Assembly: GCA_947573555.1 (NCBI GenBank)
Contig: CANPFO010000003.1
Span: 3,216-67,215 of the forward strand
Source: an uncultured Clostridium sp.
GTDB taxonomy: Bacteria > Bacillota > Clostridia > TANB77 > CAG-508
Direction: 5' to 3'
Length of the DNA stretch: 64,000 nt
Shown piece after piece: positions 7,052 through 7,853 of this stretch. The translations under genes were made by a program, and so were the position numbers. The notes under the pieces were generated by a model, which worked only from the letters and a program-made list of their open reading frames with translations, was not told where the DNA came from and did not search any database. The first letter of the stretch is position 1. Every line of letters begins with the position of its first letter.

Positions 7052-7853
7052 ATGAGACAATGGGGACAGGTTTTGTTTGTCTCACTTTTTTAGGCGGTTT
7101 TTGTCGATTTGTGCAAGCGAGAAGTTTTTTTCTTATTCCCAATGTTATTAAGCCTAACTTAAATGCACTAAGATGACATTCCTTAAAATTACTTTGAATA
7201 ATCGCGGTGGAGCTTTCTTTACAAATAGGCTAGTCCTCTATTTCTATTTTTTCATCTATATTTGCCCCAACCTTTTATTATATAAAATATATATGGTAAT
7301 TTGTTCATTCCACTCAAAAAGAAGTTGTAATATAAGAAGCCAGAGCCTCTTTCACTCAGGCTAAAAAGCTATATTATATTCCTTTTAAATTGAACAACGA
7401 ATGTGCCCTGGAATAGATGTAGAAGTTCTTAATCAAATTAATTAGGGAATCTCGCTTCACGAGGGCGCTGATTAATTTGATTTAGAACTTCTAATCTATG
7501 TAGGAAACCGAGTTGTGAAATAAAAAAGGAATATAATATAGCTTTTTCCCGTGAACATTCCTCAACTTCTTATATAACAACTTCTATTTTTCATTCCAAT
7601 CAAGCATTACCATATATATTTTATATAATAAAAGGTTGGGGCAAATATAGATGAAAAAATAGAAATAGAGGACTAGCCTATTTGTAAAGAAAGCTCCACC
7701 GCGATTATTCAAAGTAATTTTAAGGAATGTCATCTTAGTGCATTTAAGTTAGGCTTAATAACATTGGGAATAAGAAAAAAACTTCTCGCTTGCACAAATC
7801 GACAAAAACCGCCTAAAAAAGTGAGACAAACAAAACCTGTCCCCACTGTCTCA
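7052..7853. repeat. 802-bp nested palindrome: 239-bp identical inverted arms (7062-7300 and 7606-7844) around a ~305-bp imperfectly palindromic core
   Basis: By manual reverse-complement comparison the arms are identical. The core is shared with 47831-48135 and partly with 38209-38406. The outer ends are TGAGACA...GGGACAGG...TGTCTCAC modules. Confidence 0.9.

Follow-up and report, generated by a model that had tools for sequence, protein, structure and literature searches.

A palindromic repeat beside ylxM of an uncultured Clostridium, with a core found in both orientations

REPINs are doublets of REP sequences that form hairpins of about 100 nt and are mobilised by RAYT transposases of the IS200/IS605 type; it is their arms, and not their spacer, that are conserved. 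Homologous inversions occur between inverted copies of insertion sequences (IS) or of ribosomal RNA genes, and snap-back models of 'tandem inversion duplication' exist. Bacterial miniature inverted-repeat transposable elements (MITEs) and foldback repeats, such as the Correia elements of Neisseria and bcr1 of Bacillus cereus, are generally shorter than 200 bp, some reaching about 400 bp, and the fold of bcr1 is kept by compensatory changes (PMC3184786). Invertons are bounded by inverted repeats of 10-40 nt and typically lie near surface-protein genes (PMC11892184). The flgB switch of Clostridium difficile, 154 bp between 21-bp repeats, is flipped by RecV (PMC5386303); the switch repeats of this species are reported to be mostly unrelated to each other, and the invertases can lie elsewhere (PMC5903667). 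Here we describe a palindrome of 803 nt located between an oapA-like gene and ylxM in a 64,000-nt stretch of the genome of an uncultured Clostridium sp. (the window, by which we mean the whole of that stretch). Sequence comparison indicates that it belongs to an undescribed, gene-less family of foldback repeats of a few uncultured Clostridium species, and its 305-nt core is shown to occur in both orientations in natural populations.

Anatomy of the palindrome and orientation of its core

An inverted-repeat search, together with reading of the sequence, placed the left arm at 7052-7300 and the right arm at 7606-7854, 249 nt each and 305 nt apart, giving a total length of 803 nt. Their lone mismatch is 7060 A against 7846 C, and the exact part (7062-7300 and 7606-7844, 239 nt) had already been noticed in an earlier, sequence-only reading of the window. 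Between the arms lies the directional core (7301-7605, plus strand), a long imperfect hairpin with conserved asymmetric loops. The three inner pairings proposed for it in that reading were recovered as I5, I2 and I3, with complementarities of 92%, 84% and 92%, and the proposed tip, GGGAATCTCGCTTCACGAGGGCG, was placed at 7445-7467 (plus strand), an apical stem-loop whose stem (helix 10) covaries across the family. The core had also been called directional, and indeed a direct repeat, TTGTTCATTCCACTCAA / TTTTTCATTCCAATCAA, occurs at 7301-7317 (plus strand), at the arm/core junction, and at 7587-7603 (D9), and is kept in every family member. The core is predicted to fold as RNA with -115 kcal/mol on either strand (z = -15.7 and -11.2), and the entire 803 nt as DNA with -363 kcal/mol (z = -44). 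No transposase is present, in agreement with that reading: the element holds only short mirror-image open reading frames (ORFs). One of these, 7173-7364, had been suspected of being spurious; it has a mirror twin at 7584-7733 on the minus strand and is an artefact of the arms. A protein search with the 63-aa arm/core ORF found no homologue, and no ORF is conserved in the family, no frame being kept between lineages.

Three family copies lie within the 64-kb window. Besides the palindrome itself (copy 1), there is copy 2 (47698-48267, plus strand, 570 bp; 89% identity by BLAST), in which a 304-nt core (47831-48134) is enclosed by arms of 133 nt that are 95% complementary. Copy 3 (38208-38400, plus strand; nhmmer E = 1.9e-40) is armless and consists of the 5' half of the core with the apical hairpin.

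Contigs related to the copy 1 locus were gathered by exact look-up of the OapA, YlxM and Ffh-N proteins, and come from many independent metagenome assemblies. Ten independent metagenome samples carry the palindrome. Two contigs from different samples (L013, 37.9 kb; L014, 7.6 kb) span it in full; their flanks are distinct on either side, and their 802-803-bp structure is the same. In eight further samples, contigs run into it, in some from one side and in others from both. With the flanks as reference, the core is reverse-complemented in L013 (299/305), in L014 (303/305) and in one sample seen from both sides (L016, 22/22; L064, 20/20). The window orientation is found in L015 (246/246), L018 (139/139), L020, L023, L050, L060, L062, L065 (101/101) and L061. 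By sample, three are inverted and seven have the window orientation, the window itself counted. Both sides were assembled separately in four samples, and their orientation was concordant in all four. L015 has the window orientation, yet it carries the flank haplotype of single-nucleotide polymorphisms (SNPs) of the inverted contigs (7814A, 7844T, 8085G, 8686C and 8913G). Thus, orientation is not a simple follower of strain lineage.

The core was found in both orientations at a further locus, which belongs to a second lineage of the family, named here the MGBC type. At this orthologous locus on the rlmN side, L007, from a third species known as a metagenome-assembled genome (MAG), has the 5' end of the core adjoining the flank (63/64 vs 41/66), whereas L006, L008 and L024 have the 3' end there. 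As the arms are 62 nt long at this locus and can be crossed by typical reads of ~150 nt, the orientation call is independent of read-pair scaffolding. Copy 2 has the window orientation in all four informative contigs and was flipped in 0 of 5 observations. Arranged by arm length, flips were seen in 3 of 10 samples with 249-nt arms, in 0 of 5 with 133-nt arms at 95%, and once across species with 62-nt arms.

The sequence-only reading had warned that the second arm could be a fold-back artefact of assembly. L013 and L014 span the whole element between distinct flanks, the eight other samples run into it, and the 803-nt palindrome is not an assembly fold-back. Contigs do break here: 14 of 21 OapA-carrying contigs are shorter than 2 kb, and L017, L019, L021 and L022 end inside the right arm. 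That most contigs stop in the arms is what a 249-nt inverted repeat would be expected to cause in short-read graphs. In L061, positions 1-55 hold a fold-back join at the contig end, probably an assembler artefact: the core 3' half, on the plus strand, passes across the perfect 24-bp stem into the 5' half on the minus strand. The join illustrates how palindromes of this kind can corrupt assemblies from short reads, and assemblies of the locus call for caution.

Relatives whose OapA is 84-86% identical have the gene order oapA, a short-chain dehydrogenase (SDR) gene, ylxM and an intact ffh of 450 aa. The SDR gene stands between oapA and ylxM in all relatives examined (L033-L040, L052), sometimes together with a Sua5/YciO-like gene, and is missing in the window lineage. 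In L052, a very close strain (YlxM identical, DNA identity 98.3%), the SDR gene extends to the ylxM promoter, and homology with the window ends at 7051, one base short of the palindrome, as does that of the other relatives. The relatives of the L052 SDR fragment in the protein database were all at or below 84% identity. On the other side, the homology of the relatives ends at the oapA stop codon (~7851). Because homology stops at both limits, the whole 803 bp is new in the window lineage, where it stands in place of the SDR gene, and we read the palindrome as a lineage-specific insertion that replaced this gene.

The repeat family, its core fold and its arms

A two-anchor core pattern (TTCATTCCA...CTTTCACTCAGGC) located ten real loci in four uncultured Clostridia/Clostridium MAGs, with two to four loci per MAG, and was also found in three JGI metagenome contigs; a profile search confirmed the family loci and found no others in the collected sequence. 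One MAG locus (L011) is of the window type and truncated, and the remaining ones make up the MGBC type. Copies of this type are ~428 bp long, with a 301-nt core and ~62-nt arms starting GTTACTNGTTAATGG. They lie between genes at unrelated sites, among them one that follows rpsI, one that precedes an aspartokinase-like gene and one beside rlmN. In six independent MGBC-type insertions, the eight bases flanking the arms match at 8/8 (ATAGAATG), 8/8 (AAAAAAGA), 7/8, 6/8, 5/8 and 2/8 positions, with a chance match that we estimate at ~2.8/8 from the ~35% per-base identity in AT-rich flanks. Matches above this level may point to transposition with an 8-bp staggered cut.

The part of copy 1 that matches the family is the inner 557 bp only (7175-7731). 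By BLAST against the window and sequence comparison, the inner left arm (7175-7300; mirror 7606-7731) is the family arm, common to copy 2 and L011; its usual terminus, AAAAGGGGACATTCCTTAAA, reads GATGACATTCCTTAAAA in copy 1. The outer left arm (7052-7174, 123 nt; mirror 7732-7854) lies outside the repeat family: BLAST and sequence comparison left these outer 123 nt unmatched in copy 2 and L011, and they are absent from the relatives.

No known IS, intron or Rfam family matched the element, a question that the sequence-only reading had left to database searches. Membership of a known RNA family was rejected: the copies in the window and at four related loci were scanned with 4227 Rfam models, by gathering threshold and by E-value, and only OLE, outside the element, passed the threshold. 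TwoAYGGAY reached 33.2 and 30.3 bits against a gathering threshold of 43, in a generic AT-rich hairpin alignment with the diagnostic part deleted, and the Rfam matches to microRNA precursors were generic hairpin matches as well. A plasmid or phage origin was rejected, since blastn with both element types matched nothing, and a scan of viral contigs for GTTACTNGTTAATGGYTTGG gave chance matches in coding DNA only. Neither the window nor ~70 kb of related loci showed arm-only palindromes, data too few to exclude them.

The fold of the core was studied in an alignment of nine cores, which represent effectively three lineages. The window-type and MGBC-type lineages have a common hairpin plan and different stem sequences. 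Of the cells at 95 predicted pairs, 99.3% are paired; 36 of the 95 pairs have changed on both sides, as against at most five when the 3' partners were slid, and the covariation score was reached by 0 of 500 shuffles. Perfect duplexes reach 24 bp in the core stems and 239 bp in the arms. It is the unpaired stretches of the core that are conserved, while the stems differ between lineages yet stay paired. The direct repeat TTGTTCATTCCAYT at the 5' junction faces TCATTCCAATCAA at the 3' junction as a conserved internal loop; two other conserved loops have CTTTCACTCAGGC opposite CCCGYGAACATT and GAATGTGCCCTG opposite TATGTARGAARCCGA, and conserved purine-rich strands surround a small apical stem. 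The loop motifs TTCATTCCA, CTTTCACTCAGGC, GAATGTGCCCTG, TATGTA.GAA.CCGA and CCCG.GAACATT are invariant between lineages, and the 5' half and apical hairpin of copy 3 are 79% identical to the copies of another species. A census of the sense strand counted 31 G.U pairs and 16 A.C mismatches, a weak strand asymmetry that is not decisive as a test of RNA against DNA.

Changes of paired bases were also seen among very similar cores. The apical stem has gone from CAC/GTG to GTG/CAC, by six substitutions, among MGBC-type cores that are ~97-99% identical (L001, L004, L025, L026). In the stem below it, L025 and L026 carry compensatory pairs not shared with other cores, and paired change is thus concentrated in a local hot spot (alignment A3, columns 136-137/182-183 and 151-169).

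Within the MGBC type, arms of the same copy are 95% alike, arms of different copies 77% and cores 97%. Between lineages, common ancestry of the arms was rejected, local alignments being no better than shuffles. In the L006 and L008 orthologues, from two species, ggaggggc has become ggaagtgc in both arms. As the same substitutions stand in both arms, we take them as direct evidence that the two arms of one copy exchange sequence. At copy 1, the arms differ at four positions in the inverted strains L013 and L014 and at one in the window. Perfect arms had been thought from the outset to imply recent formation or ongoing conversion within the element, and the two core orientations, the four arm differences against one and the mirrored substitutions in another lineage agree with ongoing exchange. 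Crossover mapping from arm SNPs was abandoned: the informative differences include a recurring change in the length of a G-run, and the left arm of L015 was not assembled.

Some copies lie close to genes for large surface proteins. Copies 2 and 3 flank a two-gene operon of SdrD_B-type giant surface proteins (38449-47554, minus strand; 1624 and 1398 aa), and the 1398-aa protein bears an IPNTG-type sorting signal. Copy 2 is located 144 bp upstream of the gene for the 1624-aa SdrD_B adhesin and copy 3 at the 3' end of the operon, while the L011 copy lies directly 3' of a gene for a 1439-aa surface protein (L011 1982-6301). With three cases, the association of the repeat with adhesin genes is suggestive.

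Explanations for the inverting repeat

We consider it probable that the element is a MITE-like foldback repeat, selfish or neutral, whose arms recombine, flip the core and homogenise each other. Like MITEs, the family is non-coding, multi-copy and intergenic, with inverted repeats around a core and arms (249, 133 and ~62 nt) that are 95-100% complementary within a copy. Apparent short direct repeats (8 bp) flank MGBC-type copies, and the element folds as a long stem-loop with compensatory changes; its copies are dispersed, and close strains differ in its presence, the L052 site being without it. Unlike MITEs, it is not small: MGBC-type copies measure 428 bp, copy 2 measures 570 bp and copy 1 measures 803 bp. 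Moreover, the family has a conserved core and variable, copy-specific arms, whereas in ordinary MITEs it is the ends that are conserved and the middle that varies. Inversion of the core is a further difference, and no cognate IS is known. Copy 1 replaced a gene and is not a simple insertion.

In such a MITE-like element, homologous recombination of the RecA type between the arms would flip the core by crossing over, as suggested by flip counts that seem to track arm length and identity and by the lack of a short conserved recombination site. Accompanying gene conversion would maintain the near-identity of the arms. The core stems could be kept paired by this same correction at the DNA level, through conversion or through template switching across the hairpin; the weak strand asymmetry and the equal fold of both strands agree with a DNA-level process, and stems and arms perfect over such lengths favour maintenance at the DNA level. 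The unpaired loops would be held by selection, most likely for the propagation of the element itself. The arms of copy 1 would have grown by an extra 123 nt per side beyond the family member. We hypothesize that the oapA stop codon, a terminator-like hairpin and the position 18 bp upstream of the ylxM -35 are side effects.

Several observations weigh against this interpretation. The arms are unrelated between lineages, and they are 23% diverged where the cores are 97% alike, which fits a core that moved or was converted independently better than a MITE moving as one unit. The uniform cores could either have been homogenised between copies or have entered palindromic sites independently. The conserved asymmetric loops and the compensatory changes (L025, L026 and the apical stem) look like selection on folded RNA or single-stranded DNA (ssDNA). 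Purifying selection on the loops, and young, uniform cores against old, diverse arms, are left unexplained. Neither copy 1 nor copy 2 has a target duplication, and genome and metagenome scans, which used the core pattern, found no autonomous IS with matching ends. RecA dependence is drawn from only 10, 5 and 4 observations. As to the orientation of copy 1, short-read assemblies must bridge 150-240 identical bases by read pairs, and the contig end of L061 has a fold-back artefact inside the core.

REPINs resemble the element as non-autonomous hairpin repeats whose halves co-evolve to keep pairing. However, they are ~100 nt long with conserved arms, and the variable arms found here argue against membership. 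Inversion between long inverted repeats likewise involves a flip between near-identical repeats that conversion keeps alike; it concerns kilobases, against hundreds of bases here, where the segment that inverts belongs to a conserved mobile hairpin. Snap-back growth, in which the arms extend outward and adjacent DNA is lost, would account for the additional 123 nt on each side and for the absence of the SDR gene, but the outer arms were not traced to local DNA of the relatives, whose oapA-SDR and SDR-ylxM spacers show no similarity to them; a local origin was thus rejected. The nested structure could have arisen by outward growth of the palindrome through snap-back copying with loss of the neighbouring gene, or by insertion into a pre-existing palindrome.

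An unlikely alternative to a MITE-like repeat, in our judgement, is that the core encodes a large structured non-coding RNA or acts as a folded ssDNA signal; selection on pairing would then maintain its stems, its loops would have a function, and palindromy, mobility and inversion would be secondary. Nearly complete pairing, with two-sided changes far beyond the slid and shuffled controls, is what this proposal has in its favour, although covariation over effectively three lineages reflects few events. Invariant loop motifs across lineages with differing stems, private compensatory pairs in near-identical cores and the conservation in copy 3 of the 5' half and apical hairpin would also suit it. 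The sense strand has about two G.U for each A.C, but the two strands fold equally well. Perfect duplexes of 20-24 bp, running into arms of 62-249 bp, are typical of DNA palindromes kept by conversion and not of functional RNAs. No Rfam family covers the core, its sole match being the generic one to TwoAYGGAY (33 bits), and no promoter or terminator conserved across the family was found to bracket it. Inversion would, in addition, put the antisense strand under any outside promoter.

We are more doubtful about an inverton, in which the core would be flipped by a site-specific recombinase acting in trans, and its orientation would set expression of ylxM-ffh-rpsP at copy 1 or of the adhesin operon at copy 2 through a promoter, terminator or regulatory RNA inside it. 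As in invertons, an intergenic segment of a few hundred bp, bounded by inverted repeats, occurs in both orientations, here at copy 1 and at the orthologous MGBC-type locus, and it was detected in the same way, by identity that returns on reverse-complementing the segment. Copies 2 and 3 and the L011 copy stand beside surface-protein genes, where invertons are typically found (PMC11892184), the asymmetric loops are conserved across lineages, and the invertase may be encoded elsewhere (PMC5903667). However, arms of 62-249 nt, copy-specific and without a common motif, are 3-12 times longer than the short conserved sites of 10-40 nt (PMC11892184), and they are 77% alike between copies. Flip frequency seems to follow arm length, copy 2 was unflipped in 5 of 5 observations, and the element is dispersed as a repeat, apparently with target duplications. 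No linked invertase was found: no recombinase lies within 50 kb of copy 1, and the only one in the window is split. No promoter was identified either. The best sigma-70 match in the core, the sole internal one, scores 9/12, and the count of promoter-like sites in the region is within shuffle expectation. Reading of the aligned cores found no promoter geometry conserved between lineages, the candidate -35/-10 pairs at the core ends being of the window type and not of the MGBC type, and no bias of core orientation toward neighbouring gene starts was found. A regulatory role of the flip is possible but unsupported.

The split recombinase is a large serine recombinase (61183-62800, minus strand) in two ORFs ~100 nt apart, with the Resolvase domain at 62111-62800 and the Recombinase and zinc-ribbon domains at 61183-62007. 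A disrupted integrase, of prophage or skin type, is a possible identity, and no link to the inversion has been shown. The arm ends (GTTACT) and the flgB repeat of C. difficile, AAGTT(A/G)CTAT(A/T)TTACAAAAAA (PMC5386303), have only a 6-mer in common, and this likeness was not counted as evidence.

It is just as questionable whether the element is a mobile self-inverting cassette, that is, a structured RNA or ssDNA module of ~300 nt between copy-specific arms that lands by adhesin and signal recognition particle (SRP) operons and flips there, its core moving or being converted apart from the arms, and so provides gut Clostridia with phase-variable regulation that can transpose. Finally, it is highly improbable that an assembler made the second arm or the orientation differences at the repeat: contigs breaking inside the arms, the L061 join within the 24-bp core stem and the dependence of orientation across a 150-240-nt identical stretch on read-pair resolution would speak for it, but the two full-span contigs agree in structure between distinct flanks, left- and right-side contigs are concordant in four samples, the inversion of L007 relative to L006 has arms that typical reads can cross, and the same family architecture recurs in four MAG species and the JGI contigs.

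Neighbouring genes, local signals and significance

The neighbouring genes all lie on the minus strand, in the order OLE RNA, oapA-like ORF, palindrome, ylxM, ffh, rpsP, a KH protein gene, rimM and trmD, in a window with a G+C content of 27.6%. A full-length OLE RNA (8499-9098, minus strand; 327.8 bits in Rfam) is directly upstream of the oapA-like gene (7851-8396, minus strand), which encodes a membrane protein of 181 aa without a Pfam match. The sequence-only reading had correctly seen the stop codon of this gene in the right tip of the element: the TGA at 7853-7851 (minus strand) consists of terminal bases of the right arm, and in the window lineage the C-terminus and the stop codon of OapA come from the palindrome. 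On the other side, ylxM (6623-6991, minus strand) has its native promoter, TTGACA-17-TAAAGT (7005-7033, minus strand), which is kept in relatives and lies 18 bp outside the palindrome, the edge of which is thus 18 bp upstream of the -35.

Two signals were noted in the outer arms. One is a terminator-like hairpin, GGGACAGGTTTTGTTTGTCTC followed by a T-run, at 7063-7083 (plus strand), facing inward, with its mirror at 7843-7823 (minus strand) just downstream of the oapA stop codon. The other is TTGCACAAATCGACAAAAACC at 7790-7810 (plus strand; mirror 7096-7116, minus strand), which resembles the -35 and spacer of ylxM. Within it, ACAAATCGACAAAAA is found exactly in the ylxM promoter (7016-7030, minus strand) and in both arms (7098-7112, minus strand, and 7794-7808, plus strand). 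Each arm had initially been thought to carry a diverged copy of the ylxM promoter. The similarity is real, but the segment belongs to a module of ~65 nt, made up of the TTGCACAAATCGACAAAAACC motif and the terminator-like hairpin, and is not a simple promoter copy. The module reads ACAAAT.TCGACAAA, a spacer and GAGACAAACAnAACCTGTCCCnACTGTCTC, and stands at 7052-7116, at 7790-7854 and, alone, at 32530-32590 (plus strand); this last copy sits downstream of a minus-strand gene. It holds TGTCGAA/TGTCGAT, which we take to be Spo0A-box-like. The only resemblances of the outer arms that were found are that to the ylxM promoter, over ~35-50 nt, and that to the module at 32530-32590. The module could be an independent unit, either a small repeat or a terminator module.

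In ffh, a 1-nt insertion near 6157 (6122-6201, minus strand) gives GTT GTT C GGA AGT where relatives have GTT GTC GGA, and divides the gene for this essential SRP GTPase between two ORFs (162 aa and 300-313 aa). The insertion is identical in six independent assemblies, and the gene of the relatives is intact, with 450 aa. Possible readings are programmed +1 frameshifting at a rare CGG codon, a split protein and gene decay.

For assembly, the locus carries a warning: most short-read contigs break at the palindrome, and orientation across it is ambiguous. Pipelines that search for invertons would probably call such loci switches, which makes it important to know if they regulate anything or are just repeats that recombine. 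In bacteria, instability is expected of long near-perfect palindromes, and copy 1 persists in at least ten natural samples, where it adjoins the essential genes ylxM-ffh-rpsP and the OLE RNA locus. A dispersed repeat can act as an invertible segment without a recognisable invertase site. If the conserved loops turn out to be an RNA or ssDNA signal, gut Clostridia would have in the core a large structured element that is new.

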